From the sequence record MZ502379.1: a DNA stretch of 64,000 bases. One strand, given 5' to 3'. This DNA comes from Escherichia phage vB_EcoM_Shinka. The notes under the pieces were generated by a model. That model ran no database searches and was not told the DNA's origin. It saw nothing but the letters and a program-made list of their open reading frames with translations. Shown one piece after another: positions 1 to 4,057 of the stretch. Within the stretch, counting starts at the first letter, position 1. Each line of letters opens with the position of its first letter. The position numbers were made by a program, and so were the translations under genes.

Positions 1-25
1 CTGTTATTTGAGGGATGTAAACATT

Positions 26-424
26 TTATTTCATTTTTGCGAGGCAGATTTCATTGGCTTCCCATTGAGCTTGCTTAATAATAGCTTTGGATACAGGAAC
101 CTTTTGACCATAAGTTTTTGACGTTGAGAGAACAATATATTTGTTTGCCTCATTATGCCAACCCCATGATTTTTCGCCATGAGTACCTTTAATTACGGCC
201 GACACTTCAACAGAGCATCCATCAGAACTAATCTTGGTGTCTACAATCCATTCATTTCTCTCGACAGCTTCATTTTCCGATCTCATTTTTTCTTCATACA
301 CGGCGGCCCAATCAGTTTTTGTCAAGCTTAAACTAAGAGCTTTCTCTAATTCTTTGGCAGCCTTTTGTTGTTCGGGTGTTAATGAATTATATAACTCTCG
401 CATTTCTTTATCTTCAATATTCAT
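26..424 (-). CDS. hypothetical early protein (132 aa)
   Basis: ORF with ATG at 424, strong SD (GAGGAGAA) just upstream, early-promoter-like motif further upstream; no recognisable catalytic motif. Confidence 0.5.
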   Translation of the reverse strand: MNIEDKEMRELYNSLTPEQQKAAKELEKALSLSLTKTDWAAVYEEKMRSENEAVERNEWIVDTKISSDGCSVEVSAVIKGTHGEKSWGWHNEANKYIVLSTSKTYGQKVPVSKAIIKQAQWEANEICLAKMK

Positions 425-449
425 TATGTTCTCCTCAAGTTATAGGCTC

Positions 450-478
450 ATAATATCTCAATCATGAGCCTATGTAAA
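450..478 (-). promoter_or_regulatory. T4-type early (sigma70-like) promoter
   Basis: minus-strand GTTTACA (-35) with ~16 nt spacer to an AT-rich -10; motif recurs upstream of other minus-strand early ORFs. Confidence 0.35.
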
Positions 479-479
479 C

Positions 480-743
480 TTATTTCATATTATTGAAATA
501 TTCTTCTGCGATTTCATCGTTATCATGGTAAACTTTAGAAGACAGTTTAACATAACCTTCAGCAGTGAACATGTTAATCACAACCTTTACAGTATACCAC
601 TGACCATCTTCATTACCCATTACTGCGTAAGTTTCAAACATCGGATGATCAGGACCGATAACTTTAATATCATTCACTGTACGACCAAAATCTTCTGAAA
701 CACATTTCATAAAGAAGTTGAACAGTTCGCCGTAATTATCCAT
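480..743 (-). CDS. hypothetical early protein (~87 aa)
   Basis: track ORF 480..806 starts at TTG inside the predicted promoter; first ATG with SD (GGAGA) is at 743 (MDNYGELF...). Confidence 0.45.
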   Translation of the reverse strand: MDNYGELFNFFMKCVSEDFGRTVNDIKVIGPDHPMFETYAVMGNEDGQWYTVKVVINMFTAEGYVKLSSKVYHDNDEIAEEYFNNMK

Positions 744-786
744 TTCATTCTCCAAGTTGTTTTCTGTATCAGTAGTTGATAGTTGT

Positions 787-816
787 ATAGTACCATGGAA
801 GGACAAGGATGTAAAC
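787..816 (-). promoter_or_regulatory. T4-type early promoter
   Basis: minus-strand GTTTACA (rc of 810..816), 17 nt spacer, TACTAT -10 (rc of 787..792). Confidence 0.4.
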
Positions 817-950
817 CGTTTTGTGAAAAAATTTTTTAAAAAGTTTTAGGGAATTCTAGGGTAGGGAGGGGCAATTAAAAGATAGGATAATATATTATAA
901 AGGGTAGAAACTAAATGATGCCTAGAGAGGCCCGGAAAGGCCTAGATACC

Positions 951-978
951 AAAAAGCCCCAACCTTTTGGTCGGGGCT
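951..978 (-). terminator. rho-independent terminator hairpin (minus strand)
   Basis: minus-strand stem AGCCCCGACC/GGTTGGGGCT with 4-nt loop followed by TTTTT; immediately downstream of CDS 986..1459. Confidence 0.55.
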
Positions 979-985
979 AAGAATG

Positions 986-1459
986 TTATTTGATTTGTTT
1001 AGCAGACCAAATGCGGTCTTTAATAATTTTTTGGATGTCTTCAACATACTCAAGAGAGTGAGCATGTGGGTTATCTTTGAAACTATAAGCACGAGCTAAC
1101 TTTTGACCTTCAGTTTTGATTACTAAAAGCTCTTTAAGGATAGCTTCATATCTGGAGATAATTCCTTTAACGATATTTTTCTCTTGTGTGACTTTAGGAT
1201 CTGCTTTAGGAGCAGGTTTACCTGAAGCCTTTGCAAAAGCAGCTCCAGTAGCAACTAAACTTTTCCAAGCCATACTAACTGCATTCCCTGTAAATCCTTC
1301 GGCTTTCATATCACGAGCAAATTGGAATCGTGATTCATCGGAAGCATCTTTATAGGAATATTTACCCGCGGCAATGGCTGCTTTTGCGACAGCTTGAATT
1401 TCGGTGCTAGATGCTTCATTTAACACCGCTTCATTTAAAAATTGAGCATATGATTTCAT
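986..1459 (-). CDS. internal-protein-like protein with capsid-targeting-type N-terminus (157 aa)
   Basis: N-terminus MKSYAQFLNEA resembles the MKTYQEFIAEA-type capsid targeting sequence of T4 internal proteins; late TATAAATA promoter upstream; Ala/Lys-rich. Confidence 0.5.
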   Translation of the reverse strand: MKSYAQFLNEAVLNEASSTEIQAVAKAAIAAGKYSYKDASDESRFQFARDMKAEGFTGNAVSMAWKSLVATGAAFAKASGKPAPKADPKVTQEKNIVKGIISRYEAILKELLVIKTEGQKLARAYSFKDNPHAHSLEYVEDIQKIIKDRIWSAKQIK

Positions 1460-1495
1460 CTTATTTCCTGTTTTAATTCGTGGTTTTAATATACT

Positions 1496-1503
1496 TATTT
1501 ATA
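1496..1503 (-). promoter_or_regulatory. late promoter TATAAATA (minus strand)
   Basis: exact TATAAATA on minus strand ~35 nt upstream of ATG at 1459. Confidence 0.45.
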
Positions 1504-1505
1504 CT

Positions 1506-1533
1506 AAAAAGCCCCAACCTTTCGGTCGGGGCT
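1506..1533 (-). terminator. rho-independent terminator hairpin (minus strand), repeat of 951..978
   Basis: same stem sequence as 951..978 (one loop difference) followed by TTTTT on minus strand. Confidence 0.55.
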
Positions 1534-1584
1534 AAGCCTTGCGGCAACCTTGTCGGGGTTCCACCTGCTAAGGCAAGTGTTTGT

Positions 1585-1676
1585 ACGAAACGCCGGGATT
1601 CGAACCCGGTTATTAAGTAGTTGACGCTACTCAATATTTTTAAAAGGCCATATCTCGACCATATCCGAACGTTCCG
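1585..1676 (-). ncRNA. tRNA-like structured RNA (non-canonical; possible stable-RNA species)
   Basis: canonical T-arm (CCGGG-TTCGAAT-CCCGG) and 7-bp acceptor stem (one G-U) but a 10-bp hairpin with 6-nt loop where the anticodon arm should be; no encoded CCA. Confidence 0.35.
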
Positions 1677-1850
1677 TCAAAAACGCTACTCGGCTTATGG
1701 CAAAGATATTTCCTCGAATCGATAATTCGGTGCGCCGTTTCTGCTGTGATATAAGGGGGCATTAACAAAAACATAAAGATTTATTAATGCCAGTCCTTAA
1801 ACAGGGAACATCAGTCCGACGACTTGCCGGTAGCGACCCGGCTTCTTGTC

Positions 1851-1926
1851 TGGTCGAGGCAGTAGGGATCGAACCTACGACCCAGGACTTAGAAGGTCCT
1901 TGCTCTTCCTTCTGAGCTATGCCTCG
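1851..1926 (-). tRNA. tRNA-Arg (anticodon TCT)
   Basis: 76 nt cloverleaf built by hand: 7-bp acceptor, anticodon loop CTTCTAA, T-loop TTCGATC, CCA encoded. Confidence 0.8.
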
Positions 1927-1930
1927 TATT

Positions 1931-2005
1931 TGGCGGACGTGATAGGATTCGAACCTATAACCAATCGCTTAACAGGCGATCGCTCTGCCATTGAGCTACA
2001 CATCC
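1931..2005 (-). tRNA. tRNA-Asn (anticodon GTT)
   Basis: 75 nt; acceptor with one G-U, anticodon stem ATCGC/GCGAT, loop CTGTTAA, T-loop TTCGAAT, CCA encoded. Confidence 0.7.
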
Positions 2006-2009
2006 AAAT

Positions 2010-2096
2010 TGGTGGGGAGTGATGGAGTCGAACCACCCGAGTCGCAATGACAATGGATTTACAGTCCACACCGCTACCTCTACGGGATAACTCCCC
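2010..2096 (-). tRNA. tRNA-Tyr (anticodon GTA), type II
   Basis: 87 nt; perfect 7-bp acceptor GGGGAGT/ACTCCCC, anticodon loop CTGTAAA, long variable arm, T-loop TTCGACT, CCA encoded. Confidence 0.7.
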
Positions 2097-2105
2097 AAAT
2101 TAATT

Positions 2106-2180
2106 TGGTGGCCCTGGGTAGAATTGAACCACCATCTGGCGATTATGAGTCGCTTGCTTGAACCTTCCAGCTACAGGGCC
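2106..2180 (-). tRNA. tRNA-Ile/Met (anticodon CAT)
   Basis: 75 nt; acceptor GGCCCTG/CAGGGCC, anticodon loop CTCATAA, T-loop TTCAATT, CCA encoded; T4 tRNA-Ile uses CAU. Confidence 0.75.
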
Positions 2181-2181
2181 T

Positions 2182-2257
2182 TGGTGCTGATTGACGGAAT
2201 CGAACCGCCGACGTCCTCATTACAAGTGAGGTGCTCTACCTACTGAGCTAAATCAGC
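2182..2257 (-). tRNA. tRNA-Thr (anticodon TGT)
   Basis: 76 nt; acceptor GCTGATT/AATCAGC, anticodon loop CTTGTAA, T-loop TTCGATT, CCA encoded. Confidence 0.8.
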
Positions 2258-2262
2258 AAAAC

Positions 2263-2352
2263 TGGCGGAGGCGATAGGATTTGAACCTATGAGTCGCCGG
2301 AGCGACTGCCGGTTTTCAAGACCGGTGCATTAAACCACTCTGCCACGCCTCC
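2263..2352 (-). tRNA. tRNA-Ser (anticodon TGA), type II
   Basis: 90 nt; acceptor GGAGGCG/CGCCTCC, anticodon loop CTTGAAA, long variable hairpin AGTCGC/GCGACT, T-loop TTCAAAT, CCA encoded. Confidence 0.8.
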
Positions 2353-2354
2353 AG

Positions 2355-2428
2355 TCTCCATACAAGGATTTGAACCTTGGACCTCCTGATCCCAAATCAG
2401 GCGCTCTACCAAACTGAGCTACACGGAG
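2355..2428 (-). tRNA. tRNA-Pro (anticodon TGG)
   Basis: 74 nt; anticodon stem CCTGA/TCAGG, loop TTTGGGA, T-loop TTCAAAT; no encoded CCA; 2 nt from tRNA-Ser. Confidence 0.8.
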
Positions 2429-2438
2429 TAAATTAAAT

Positions 2439-2512
<74 letters not shown>

Positions 2513-2517
2513 AAATT

Positions 2518-2604
2518 TGGTGCGAGAAGTGGGACTCGAACCCACAAGGAAATCATTCCGCAGCATTTTAAGTGCTGTGCCTTTACCAATTTGACCATTC
2601 TCGC
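2518..2604 (-). tRNA. tRNA-Leu (anticodon TAA), type II
   Basis: 87 nt; acceptor GCGAGAA/TTCTCGC, anticodon stem CAGCA/TGCTG, loop CTTAAAA, long variable arm, T-loop TTCGAGT, CCA encoded. Confidence 0.8.
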
Positions 2605-2605
2605 G

Positions 2606-2678
2606 CTGGGAATAAAGGACTCGAACCTTTGCATCCTGGAATCAAAATCCAGTGCCTTACCAACTTGGCTAATTCCCA
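2606..2678 (-). tRNA. tRNA-Gln (anticodon TTG)
   Basis: 73 nt; acceptor TGGGAAT/ATTCCCA, anticodon stem CTGGA/TCCAG, loop TTTTGAT, T-loop TTCGAGT; 1 nt from tRNA-Leu (dimeric-precursor arrangement). Confidence 0.8.
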
Positions 2679-2744
2679 ATTATTAACAAAGGCTCTCAAG
2701 CAAGAACCCTTGATGATAGAGGGTATTAATCAGTGCGGTATGAG

Positions 2745-2773
2745 TTAATAATAACAAATAATTCTTAAAGCAT
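2745..2773 (-). promoter_or_regulatory. MotA-box middle promoter upstream of the tRNA array
   Basis: minus-strand ATGCTTTAA (MotA box TGCTTtA) ~12 nt upstream of TATTAT; identical 29-nt element recurs at 61481..61509 upstream of gene 31. Confidence 0.4.
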
Positions 2774-2775
2774 AT

Positions 2776-3063
2776 TTACCATTTATGATAATACATATTT
2801 ACGATGCATTCAAGACCCAAAGGATTCTTGAAAATATCATATTTAAGAGGACCTTTTTCTGTTTCAATAAAGAAATCAAAATTTACTGTATTAAATTTAC
2901 GGTCTTCCTTCACTAATTTAACTTGAGAAGATGAACGGTCAACATAAACCTTTTCAACTTCAAAACATGTTAAAATGCCATAATCATCAATCAAGGCTTT
3001 AGCTGCTTCTTGATCATATTTATATCCATTTTCAATGGACGATACTTTAGCATAAAGAATCAT
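2776..3063 (-). CDS. hypothetical protein (95 aa)
   Basis: ATG-initiated ORF, no recognisable motif. Confidence 0.5.
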   Translation of the reverse strand: MILYAKVSSIENGYKYDQEAAKALIDDYGILTCFEVEKVYVDRSSSQVKLVKEDRKFNTVNFDFFIETEKGPLKYDIFKNPLGLECIVNMYYHKW

Positions 3064-3065
3064 TA

Positions 3066-3446
3066 TTAGCCTTCATCAACAATAGTATGAGTATGGGCAT
3101 TTACAATTTGCCACCAATCAAAGCGATTGGAACCATACATTGGTTTGTTTTCATTTTCTTTGATAATGTCACGGAGTTCATCTTCGGTAGCGGCTTTCGC
3201 GATTAAATCAGCATATCCACCACGAGGATAATAATTATCACCTGCAAAAAGTAAAAAGTTTGGTTTAATGTTATTGAACTCTTCAATAGTAATAACTTTT
3301 CCTGTTGGTTGAACAATCTCTACATATTTATATCCCAATTTTTGAGCAGCATCTACTGCTTCAAGCAAAGTATCATGAGCCCATCCAATTTGACAACCTG
3401 GCTTTTCAGATGGATTAGCCTGATAATCCGCATACACTTTGTACAT
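3066..3446 (-). CDS. hypothetical protein (~126 aa)
   Basis: track ORF starts at TTG; first ATG (MYKVYADY...) at 3446 has SD AAGGTG and overlaps the stop of the upstream ORF (TAGAATG). Confidence 0.5.
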   Translation of the reverse strand: MYKVYADYQANPSEKPGCQIGWAHDTLLEAVDAAQKLGYKYVEIVQPTGKVITIEEFNNIKPNFLLFAGDNYYPRGGYADLIAKAATEDELRDIIKENENKPMYGSNRFDWWQIVNAHTHTIVDEG

Positions 3447-3447
3447 T

Positions 3448-3633
3448 CTATTCACCTTTAGAAATTTTATCCATAACGATAGCAATTAAACCAATTAAAA
3501 ATGCTACTACAAGTGAAAACACATTTTCTGCTGTAGTCAATAATCCGCATATAAATCCAACAAACATTGAAAAACTAAAAGCAGAAGCAGAAATTGCAAT
3601 AGCAACATTTCGAATTAATTCACAACGTTTCAT
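3448..3633 (-). CDS. small hydrophobic (two-helix membrane) protein (61 aa)
   Basis: two hydrophobic stretches (AIAISASAFSFSMFVGFICGLL and VFSLVVAFLIGLIAIV); early promoter upstream. Confidence 0.45.
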   Translation of the reverse strand: MKRCELIRNVAIAISASAFSFSMFVGFICGLLTTAENVFSLVVAFLIGLIAIVMDKISKGE

Positions 3634-3661
3634 TTTATTCTCCTCGGTAGTTGATAGGGTA

Positions 3662-3691
3662 ATAGTATCACAACTAAAACCCTATGTAAAC
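3662..3691 (-). promoter_or_regulatory. T4-type early promoter
   Basis: minus-strand GTTTACA (rc 3685..3691), 17-nt spacer, TACTAT. Confidence 0.4.
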
Positions 3692-3709
3692 AACTTTGTG
3701 AAATATTTA

Positions 3710-3997
3710 TTACAAAAGATTTTTAGCAATAATCTTGAGATGTGCCGCAGAAATGTGTTTAGCTTTAAACAACGCAGTTTCTTCAGCAGGAGAGATAACG
3801 ATTGTAGCACCATCCTTTTTAGCAGACCACCCATCACCTAGGTAAACAGTACCTTTGATTTCTTCGCCATCAACCAGACTAATCATTGGTTTACCTTCTC
3901 GTCCTTTATTTGCTTTAATAACTTCAGAAGTAAGAGTAGCCTCGGTAATGGTAGAAACCGGGGTAGTTGTAGAAGTAAATTCTTTGAAAGTTTTCAT
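3710..3997 (-). CDS. internal-protein-like protein (95 aa) at the T4 ipI position
   Basis: N-terminus MKTFKEF... matches the MKTxxEF capsid-targeting pattern; 95 aa; sits between the tRNA region and 57B as ipI does in T4. Confidence 0.5.
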   Translation of the reverse strand: MKTFKEFTSTTTPVSTITEATLTSEVIKANKGREGKPMISLVDGEEIKGTVYLGDGWSAKKDGATIVISPAEETALFKAKHISAAHLKIIAKNLL

Positions 3998-4027
3998 TTT
4001 ATTTTCCTAATTAATTTTGATGAGATA

Positions 4028-4057
4028 ATAGTATCACTACCTCATCAACGTGTAAAC
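4028..4057 (-). promoter_or_regulatory. T4-type early promoter
   Basis: minus-strand GTTTACA-N17-TACTAT. Confidence 0.45.

Follow-up and report, generated by a model that had tools for sequence, protein, structure and literature searches.

We examined a 64,000-nucleotide (nt) stretch of the genome of Escherichia phage vB_EcoM_Shinka (record MZ502379.1; the whole stretch is referred to as the window), with emphasis on a small locus near its left end, where a gene for a 157-amino-acid (aa) protein—hereafter gene 1—lies between two nearly identical hairpin-forming repeats. The window comes from a Tequatrovirus, ~97% identical to vB_Eco_Geo, slur07 and RB18-like phages, and every gene of the region is carried on the minus strand. 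Following the direction of transcription, the region begins with the gene for deoxynucleoside monophosphate kinase (also called gene 1, and not the gene discussed here), 57A, 57B, ipI (Pfam IPI_T4), trna.4, trna.3 and trna.2, and continues with ten tRNAs (2678-1851), rnaD, rnaC, the upstream repeat (copy B), gene 1, the downstream repeat (copy A), the e.8 promoter and e.8 (Table 1). The positions of rnaD and rnaC in the window were taken from an alignment to the T4 record. The site between rnaC and e.8 is called the slot in what follows.

Table 1. Features of the slot and its flanks, with positions in the window.
Feature	Position	Strand	Basis or detail
e.8, conserved right-hand flank of the slot	480..743	-	Aligned to T4 e.8 at 70360-70623; phrog_2678
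T4 early promoter of e.8 (TTTACA-17-TACTAT), opening the next transcription unit	787..815	-	Early-promoter repeat families D1/D6
Copy A (downstream), predicted terminator hairpin of gene 1	946..981	-	Stem 955-978, loop AAAA, U-run 951-955
Gene 1, 157-aa leader-bearing protein (phrog_2280), candidate internal protein	986..1459	-	Open reading frame and profile match
Shine-Dalgarno sequence AGGAAA	1464..1469	-	4 nt upstream of ATG; kept in alignment of relatives
T4-type late promoter box TATAAATA	1496..1503	-	Exact consensus match
Copy B (upstream), predicted intrinsic terminator of the tRNA/rnaC unit	1501..1536	-	Stem 1510-1533, loop GAAA, U-run 1506-1510
Structured rnaC 3' trailer, up to the terminator	1537..1583	-	Folds into two small hairpins
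rnaC (species 1 RNA), final gene of the tRNA-rnaD-rnaC unit	1584..1722	-	Alignment to T4 rnaC, annotated at 70908-71046

Gene 1 is flanked by two exact occurrences of the element AAAAAGCCCCAACCTTTYGGTCGGGGCTAAG, at 951-981 and 1506-1536, and the window contains no others even when up to three mismatches are allowed; the number of matches expected from 100 shuffled sequences was 0.00, and a relaxed stem pattern likewise returned two copies within the 64 kb. The full direct repeat extends over 36 nt, 34 of which are identical between the copies (repeat-finder family D4)—making it slightly longer than described in the earlier note, whose observation of a flanking pair of minus-strand hairpins, each with a T-run, was otherwise borne out. 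Read on the minus strand, both copies consist of a 10-bp stem of the GCCCC...GGGGC (polyG/polyC-like) type with seven G-C pairs, a tetraloop that differs between the two, and a U5 run directly on the 3' side. Folding of the two copies in 51-nt contexts gave energies of -24.9 and -19.7 kcal/mol, with z-scores of -4.4 and -3.3, respectively, and the hairpins rank as the top two terminator-like sites within the first 6 kb. Both stand in the coding-strand sense, copy B 51 nt 3' of rnaC and copy A beginning 5 nt past the stop codon of gene 1. Among relatives, copy A varies more than copy B, and copy B corresponds to the single copy retained at the matching position in T4, T2, VR7, JS09 and RB69. 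In 16 hairpin copies collected from relatives, 91% of the cells stay paired and the changes are one-sided (G-U/A-U), with the Mosigvirus copies displaying a 2x2 internal loop. Since the repeat is present at one or two places per complete genome (1087 places in 685 records), it does not represent a dispersed family. The depositors of GiZh, R5505 and fPS-90 annotated the ortholog of copy B as a predicted terminator, and the likely explanation of the pair, judged from these sequence features, is that a single Rho-independent terminator is present here in two paralogous copies. Directly after copy A on the minus strand (905-945) lies another hairpin, CTAGGCCTTTCCGGGCCTCTCTAG, which is weaker; its stem is poorly kept in T4 and RB9, so it is probably non-functional.

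The late promoter box starts 2 nt beyond the copy B U-run and stops 36 nt short of the ATG of gene 1; its first 3 nt (TAT) are also part of the repeat. Matches to the late-promoter consensus number 25 in the window, against 9.1 expected. The same hairpin/late-promoter arrangement was found in RB27, RPN226, fPS-90, JS09, Jiaodavirus phiKp_22 and a contig of the IMG/VR database (L012), and the fPS-90 depositors annotated a late promoter at the equivalent of TATAAATA as well as an early promoter at the equivalent of the e.8 promoter. Because the order of elements is terminator, late promoter, Shine-Dalgarno sequence, gene and terminator, gene 1 appears to form an insulated, self-sufficient late unit: copy B would stop the early/middle tRNA-rnaD-rnaC transcript, TATAAATA would drive gene 1, and copy A would stop the resulting late transcript ahead of the e.8 early promoter. 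Both termination and late transcription at this unit are predictions from the DNA sequence. For annotation, we suggest that the two hairpins be marked as terminators and the 8-mer TATAAATA as a late promoter.

Gene 1 matches phrog_2280, a family of unknown function, at 6.8e-60, and its homologs are named 'hypothetical' everywhere in the databases. No Pfam domain was found in its protein, IPI_T4 matching only the ipI product of the window. The leader of the protein, MKSYAQFLNEA, could be aligned with that of the T4 internal proteins (IPs) IPII and IPIII (MKTYQEFIAEA) and with that of IPI from both T4 and the window (MKTFKEF…ITEA); moreover, the leader pattern is matched by two of the 481 Met-initiated open reading frames in the window, namely ipI and gene 1. 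On these grounds, the earlier label 'IP-like' holds by sequence. The prohead protease gp21 of T4 has the specificity L/I-x-E, and the leader end of gene 1 fits this cleavage motif, with LNE-A at residues 8-11 and again at 13-16 (LTE, LAE or MTE-A in the orthologs). Beyond the leader, which alone aligns, no homology of the mature gene 1 protein to known IPs was detected—a weak criterion, because the known IPs are themselves mutually unrelated outside the leader. The AlphaFold model of the protein is all-helical and of moderate confidence (predicted local distance difference test, pLDDT, 71.5; predicted template modeling score, pTM, 0.41), and Foldseek searches against BFVD and PDB gave no fold match other than its own ortholog. 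The two helical halves are joined by a Pro/Lys-rich linker of low confidence (SGKPAPKADPK) that includes residues 80-87; in the JS09-type protein, this linker is expanded into a long PK-rich stretch. Equipped with a T-even capsid-targeting leader, the gene 1 product would most likely be packaged in the head, processed by cleavage after LNE and injected along with the DNA. The gene itself lies outside the classical IP loci, ipI being located at 3710-3997 in the window and T4 ipII/III beside denV and e.

Comparison with T4 revealed an empty state of the slot. Between e.8 and rnaC, T4 carries a single hairpin and lacks a gene; its left flank is that of copy A, its right flank is that of copy B, and exactly 555 bp are absent—with both ends of the indel falling inside the repeat. 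T2, RB9, F2, BF15 and SHFML-11 are in this same state as T4, and the structure seen in T4 and T2 is the one expected from a crossover between two direct repeats. The 24-nt stem-loop of T4, AGCCCCGACCGAAAGGTTGGGGCT, is identical to that of copy B and occupies the same position, ~50 nt after rnaC. No late promoter follows the single T4 hairpin, GGTATCTAAGCC standing in place of AGTATAAATA. The terminator of T4 rnaC was presumably mapped experimentally in the older literature on T4 tRNAs. The empty sites fall into several haplotypes: BF15 joins the upstream copy of RPN226 (CCAGCC arm, AGTAT) to the downstream flank CTAGG, SHFML-11 reads AGTAT|CTAGG, F2 carries the downstream-type GATAT, and T4, T2 and RB9 combine GACC with GGTAT. 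This diversity is consistent with crossovers at differing points of the repeat.

To place these two states in a broader context, we examined the slot across relatives—the comparison that had been set beforehand as a check. By tblastn, gene 1 was found in 511 phage records, with aa identities of at least 95% in 355 of them, 80-95% in 35, 60-80% in 94 (RB27, Mosigvirus) and below 60% in 27 (Klebsiella Jiaodavirus). The location of gene 1 immediately behind the tRNA/rnaC cluster is shared by RB27, RPN226, Mosigvirus O157tp3 and Jiaodavirus phiKp_22; in each of them, a hairpin, a U-run and TATAAATA or AATAAATA come before the gene and a terminator comes after it. Given this common placement and architecture, gene 1 was probably present in the ancestor, and the state of T4 is probably due to a deletion. 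The two terminators are mutual copies in Tequatrovirus and Mosigvirus. When the empty allele of T4 was used as the query and 60 of the 768 matching records were sampled in even steps, 9 were empty, 21 held one unit and 9 held two (homology stopping exactly at the hairpin). Combined with the record counts of genes 1 and 2, the sample suggests ~165 empty, ~225 single and ~165 double sites, figures that represent rough arithmetic rather than a census.

Gene 1 alone occupies the slot in the window and in most relatives. Two units with three terminators, spaced by ~557 and ~687 nt, were observed in fPS-90, SCS4, ChristianSchoenbein (Mosigvirus) and phiE142 (Carettavirus). In fPS-90, whose depositors annotated the three terminators and a late promoter at the slot, the order is rnaC, hairpin 1, TATAAATA with gene 1, hairpin 2, a 187-aa gene (gene 2), hairpin 3 and the e.8 promoter; the stem of hairpin 2 is identical to that of hairpin 1, and hairpin 3 has another stem with the same 3' end (GGGCTTTTTGGTATCTAGG). 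Gene 2, present in 165 records, encodes a protein with the leader MKTYAEFLTEA and matches phrog_2280 from end to end. BLASTP of gene 1 against gene 2 aligned the 11-aa leader only, even though both proteins match phrog_2280 end to end, and the two genes are therefore likely, if distant, paralogs. In RB69, gene 2 is the only unit and immediately follows the rnaC hairpin. In the RB69 record (NC_004928, locus L023, 7429-7991), a frameshift splits the gene 2 homolog into the overlapping ORF149c and ORF148c, reflecting either a pseudogene or a sequencing error. A third phrog_2280 type, 208 aa long (MYTFNEFLAE…ITEA) and equipped with a distinct terminator of its own, occurs in JS09, and VR7 has the hairpin and no unit. 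Moreover, two Gaprivervirus-like IMG/VR contigs differ by one unit, L012 being occupied (2934-3488) and its sister L014 empty. The L012 unit, located behind the rnaC terminator, consists of TATAAATA, a gene for a DUF7338 protein (phrog_2143) and its own terminator, and it is bounded by the 13-nt repeat GGGCTTTTTTATA; the DUF7338 protein has a hydrophobic N-terminus and no IP leader. The IMG/VR scan for the rnaC 3' end yielded six contigs, too few for population statistics.

Taken together, genes 1 and 2 occur in every possible combination of presence and absence, and the slot is shared by at least two unrelated gene families. All junctions fall in a terminator 3' arm or T-run, and at least four distinct indels have both ends in such sequences: the separate losses of gene 1 in T4 and RB69, the gene 2 unit and the DUF7338 unit. 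This pattern of retained flanking repeats with variable content between them (none, gene 1, gene 2, both, the JS09 type or DUF7338) supports the earlier proposal that the gene between the repeats is a swappable cassette—with recombination as the probable cause of the swapping.

The units also diverge independently of their surroundings. Gene 2 retains 97% identity across Tequatrovirus, Mosigvirus and Carettavirus, next to gene 1 alleles at only ~75%; for Tequatrovirus fPS-90 and Mosigvirus ChristianSchoenbein in particular, the values are 97% for gene 2 and 74% for the adjacent gene 1. This discordant divergence of neighboring units is evidence for independent movement. When the window is compared with RB27, the flanks are 94-96% identical, the late-promoter spacer 60%, and the successive thirds of the gene 67, 77 and 84%; the divergent RB27 allele starts at copy B and tapers off within the gene's 3' end. 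Likewise, Mosigvirus O157tp3 and Tequatrovirus are 98-100% identical through rnaC, and their similarity ends directly after copy A. Arm variants of the hairpin are lineage-specific and common to both copies (CCTTCC in Mosigvirus; CCGACC, CCAGCC or CTAGCC in Tequatrovirus), and the loop variant TTAY is found in the downstream copy of one Mosigvirus and in the upstream copy of another; these shared arm and loop variants hint at exchange between the copies.

On this basis, we consider it probable that the paired terminators both insulate a late IP-like unit and serve as crossover repeats. With comparable confidence, we regard the site downstream of the rnaC terminator as a cassette slot for zero, one or two late units, mostly leader-bearing members of phrog_2280. 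Mechanistically, the 36-nt direct repeats would offer a crossover site to the homologous-recombination machinery of T4, and one crossover would remove the 555-bp unit and leave a single hybrid hairpin, i.e., the state of T4 and T2. The same logic applied to neighboring terminators would yield gene 2 alone, as in RB69, from an array of genes 1 and 2. Units would probably be regained or exchanged in mixed infections via the conserved rnaC and e.8 flanks or via the terminators. Recombination at the repeats is thus inferred to be the cause of the indels.

Several observations weigh against this interpretation. First, the consensus scan for terminator-like sites over 6 kb returned 4 hits against 4.3 expected in shuffled sequences, and because the total is not enriched, the scan alone proves nothing. 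Second, no two-sided compensatory changes were seen in the stem among the 16 hairpin copies, such that covariation adds no support for it. Third, the terminators flanking the Jiaodavirus ortholog are different hairpins and not mutual repeats, showing that the repeat is not required for the unit to exist. Fourth, the junction repeats of the gene 2 and DUF7338 units measure 9-13 nt (GGGC plus T-run) and are features that any two terminators share functionally. Fifth, RPN226 shows intragenic mosaicism in gene 1, and the divergent RB27 allele has its 3' edge within the gene; with breakpoints also located there, the hairpins are not the sole crossover sites. Sixth, the empty-site haplotypes are told apart by an A/G difference behind the U-run, which could be a recurrent point mutation. 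Finally, a neighbor-joining tree of the e.8 flank from 12 genomes placed T4 and T2 together and split the two-cassette genomes among single-cassette ones—a result that, at 2-6% divergence, without support values and under rampant recombination, is suggestive only. Since T4 and T2 group on this flank, many of the empty sites could stem from one deletion spread by flank recombination.

These points lead directly to the best-surviving alternative, in which the hairpins are terminators only, the repeat is a relic of an old duplication, and the states of the slot spread by ordinary recombination in the rnaC and e.8 flanks during mixed infection. Flanks that are 94-100% identical even across genera supply the long homology that such a process needs, and the breakpoints inside the gene (RPN226, RB27), the grouping of T4 with T2 and the existence of the Jiaodavirus unit without a repeat all agree with it. 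However, the first origin of each state is left unexplained under this alternative, and both the indels (at least four) with both ends in terminator 3' arms or T-runs and the several junction haplotypes among the empty sites speak against it. As far as spread is concerned, this account is compatible with crossover between terminators and differs from it on origin only; as a substitute for the latter, we judge it rather unlikely.

A second alternative would assign the hairpins to the early-promoter/stem-loop elements known as PeSLs and have the gene move by way of PeSL mini-circles. PeSLs combine a stable stem-loop, often polyG/polyC, that serves as terminator or attenuator with a sigma70-like early promoter whose upstream region is AT-rich, and they number ~50 per genome, concentrated in hyperplastic regions (Arbiol 2010, PMC2839356; Comeau 2014, PMC4122927). 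A GGGG...CCCC-type stem-loop does flank an accessory gene absent from close relatives at the slot, and the lone remaining element is a hybrid, as in the case of RB49/phi1 ORF192 (PMC2839356). Yet neither copy contains or overlaps a sigma70-like -35/-10 pair, copy B adjoins the late promoter TATAAATA, and the nearest early promoter, that of e.8, lies ~135 nt beyond copy A; in addition, there are 1-2 copies per genome against ~50 PeSLs, and Arbiol et al. (PMC2839356) describe the T-even elements as analogues, not homologs, of PeSLs. We rejected PeSL membership on promoter type and copy number, and consider this explanation very improbable. The earlier analogy with promoter/stem-loop elements that flank hypervariable genes is accordingly retained in part: the pattern of modular exchange stands, but the elements are not PeSLs, and gene 1, at 95% identity or more in most of its records, is not hypervariable.

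A third alternative attributes the polymorphism to co-conversion driven by the nearby homing endonuclease SegB, or by another site-specific enzyme, with the hairpin repeat being incidental. SegB promotes preferential inheritance of the tRNA region of T4, and segB or GIY-YIG genes are located within ~0.5-1 kb of the slot in T4, RPN226, fPS-90 and SHFML-11. Nonetheless, the window and many cassette-bearing relatives have no segB, the segB-bearing genomes span empty (T4), single (RPN226) and double (fPS-90) slots, and co-conversion passes on a donor allele and creates no junctions inside hairpins, so that this explanation is marginally less credible still than the preceding one. The last candidate, a resemblance of the two hairpins by chance or by functional convergence of unrelated terminators, appeals to the GC stem and T-run common to all intrinsic terminators and has a negligible probability: we rejected it, considering that the identity of the copies also covers the unpaired flanks (CTTA, GTAT) and the loop, that 100 shuffles gave 0 matches, and that lineage-specific arm variants appear in both copies.

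Crossover between paired terminators remains our preferred reading, and the locus is of moderate interest, chiefly as a pointer to an unrecognized family of probable injected proteins. IPI, IPII, IPIII and Bas37_0260 are all the characterized T-even IPs, and all are injected inhibitors of type IV restriction; the field treats IPs as confined to two small loci. A leader-bearing family found in ~500 sequenced T4-like phages at a third site, and annotated as 'hypothetical', therefore amounts to a candidate list of injected anti-defense proteins, testable by knock-outs against GmrSD, McrBC and other defenses. We advance more tentatively, as a possibility that we would not yet favor, the broader proposition that the slot is a previously unrecognized third T-even IP locus, in which linkers made of a terminator and a late promoter—a late counterpart of PeSLs—delete, stack and exchange injected phrog_2280 anti-defense proteins, of at least four diverged types, across genera. 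Furthermore, the locus offers an unusually clean natural example of a functional regulatory element doubling as a recombination linker. Because every state of the two units exists in isolates and the junctions can be resolved to a few nt, repeat-mediated loss and gain of cassettes are directly measurable here.

The surroundings of the slot show their own patterns of conservation and polymorphism. The rnaC gene is 98-100% identical across genera, and its trailer is invariant in six of six aligned genomes, one of them a Mosigvirus. The stretch of rnaD, rnaC and the ~50-nt trailer (1537-1849, minus strand) is 98-100% identical among Tequatrovirus, Mosigvirus and Gaprivervirus-like phages, with neighboring protein genes at 75% or less, or unrelated. 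A scan of positions 1-4000 against Rfam 15 gave tRNAs and sub-threshold noise, and no family for the hairpins or for the stable RNAs rnaC and rnaD. The tRNA cluster is polymorphic, with ten tRNAs (1851-2678) but no segB in the window, eight together with segB in T4, an extra tRNA-His plus ~550 bp in R5505/RB18-like genomes, and a GIY-YIG/segB-like gene in RPN226 and fPS-90. The tRNA at 2106-2180, called Met(CAT) here, is annotated as Ile(CAU) in GiZh. Finally, T4 early promoters (GTTTAC...TAnnAT) whose -10 box is spanned by AT-rich inverted repeats are located at 442-479, 769-847, 3644-3722 and 4028-4056; these repeats (families D1/D5/D6) precede e.7, e.8, trna.4 and ipI, and they are the PeSL-analogue elements of T-even IP loci, distinct from the hairpins of the slot.

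Among known systems, the polymorphic IP loci of T-even phages, with their conserved flanking regulatory repeats, are an obvious point of reference (Repoila et al. 1994, EMBO J 13:4181, as presented in PMC2839356, PMC4122927 and PMC12373910). Like these loci, the slot holds accessory, leader-bearing genes whose number and identity vary among close relatives, and it is bracketed by a repeated regulatory sequence of the kind proposed there to mediate shuffling. In published work, the capsid-targeting leader of ~10-11 aa is the only feature common to otherwise unrelated internal proteins, and the leader is also all that the phrog_2280 proteins of the slot have in common with IPI-III. The characterized IPs are injected inhibitors of type IV restriction and, in recent functional work, all of them are encoded at the classical loci. 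However, the slot differs from the latter in position, being located between rnaC and e.8 instead of 57B-trna.4 (ipI) or denV-e (ipII/ipIII); according to Arbiol et al. (PMC2839356), IP genes are absent elsewhere in T-even genomes. In the curated RB69 record, the genes at the ipI locus are named internal proteins and those at the slot hypothetical. The elements differ as well. Those of the classical IP loci are PeSL analogues, composed of T4 early promoters and weak AT-rich stem-loops (Arbiol et al., PMC2839356), an architecture (with the stem-loop over the -10 box) that we confirmed around ipI of the window and ipII/III of T4, whereas the element of the slot is a predicted GC-rich intrinsic terminator joined to a late promoter; an early-promoter element of the type described by Repoila et al. 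was looked for at 946-981 and 1501-1536 and was not found.

The comparison with PeSLs themselves is similarly two-sided. PeSLs flank ORFans that differ between close relatives and form mini-circles (PMC2839356, PMC4122927), and the open reading frames that they flank are excised by recombination between the flanking elements (PMC2839356). The slot resembles them in having a stem-loop with a GGGG/CCCC-type stem on both sides of a dispensable reading frame, in the insulation of the unit, and in the existence of relatives from which the reading frame has been precisely removed with one hybrid element left behind (T4 against the window, RB69 against ChristianSchoenbein). Recombination in T4 needs less than 50 bp of homology, and T4 deletions often involve GGGC/GCCC motifs (PMC2839356). 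Because the slot elements have no sigma70-type early promoter, are associated with a late promoter and occur in one or two copies per genome rather than ~50, they are not PeSLs. The slot is nevertheless a real terminator-bounded late-gene cassette and a variant of the known shuffling at IP loci and PeSLs.

A third parallel is provided by the morons of lambdoid phages, which, in the summary of Hendrix's 'moron accretion' given in PMC2839356, are assumed to enter genomes at varied sites through illegitimate recombination. As with morons, the slot unit is a single extra gene with its own promoter and terminator, placed between two existing units and absent in T4 and T2. In contrast to morons, the units reuse a single slot, and their junctions fall in sequence that is homologous or terminator-like; the orientation of the unit, which is that of its neighbors, is a further difference. 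The closest description of the locus is a moron-like late unit in a reusable slot, with the terminator and the late promoter acting as the shared linker.

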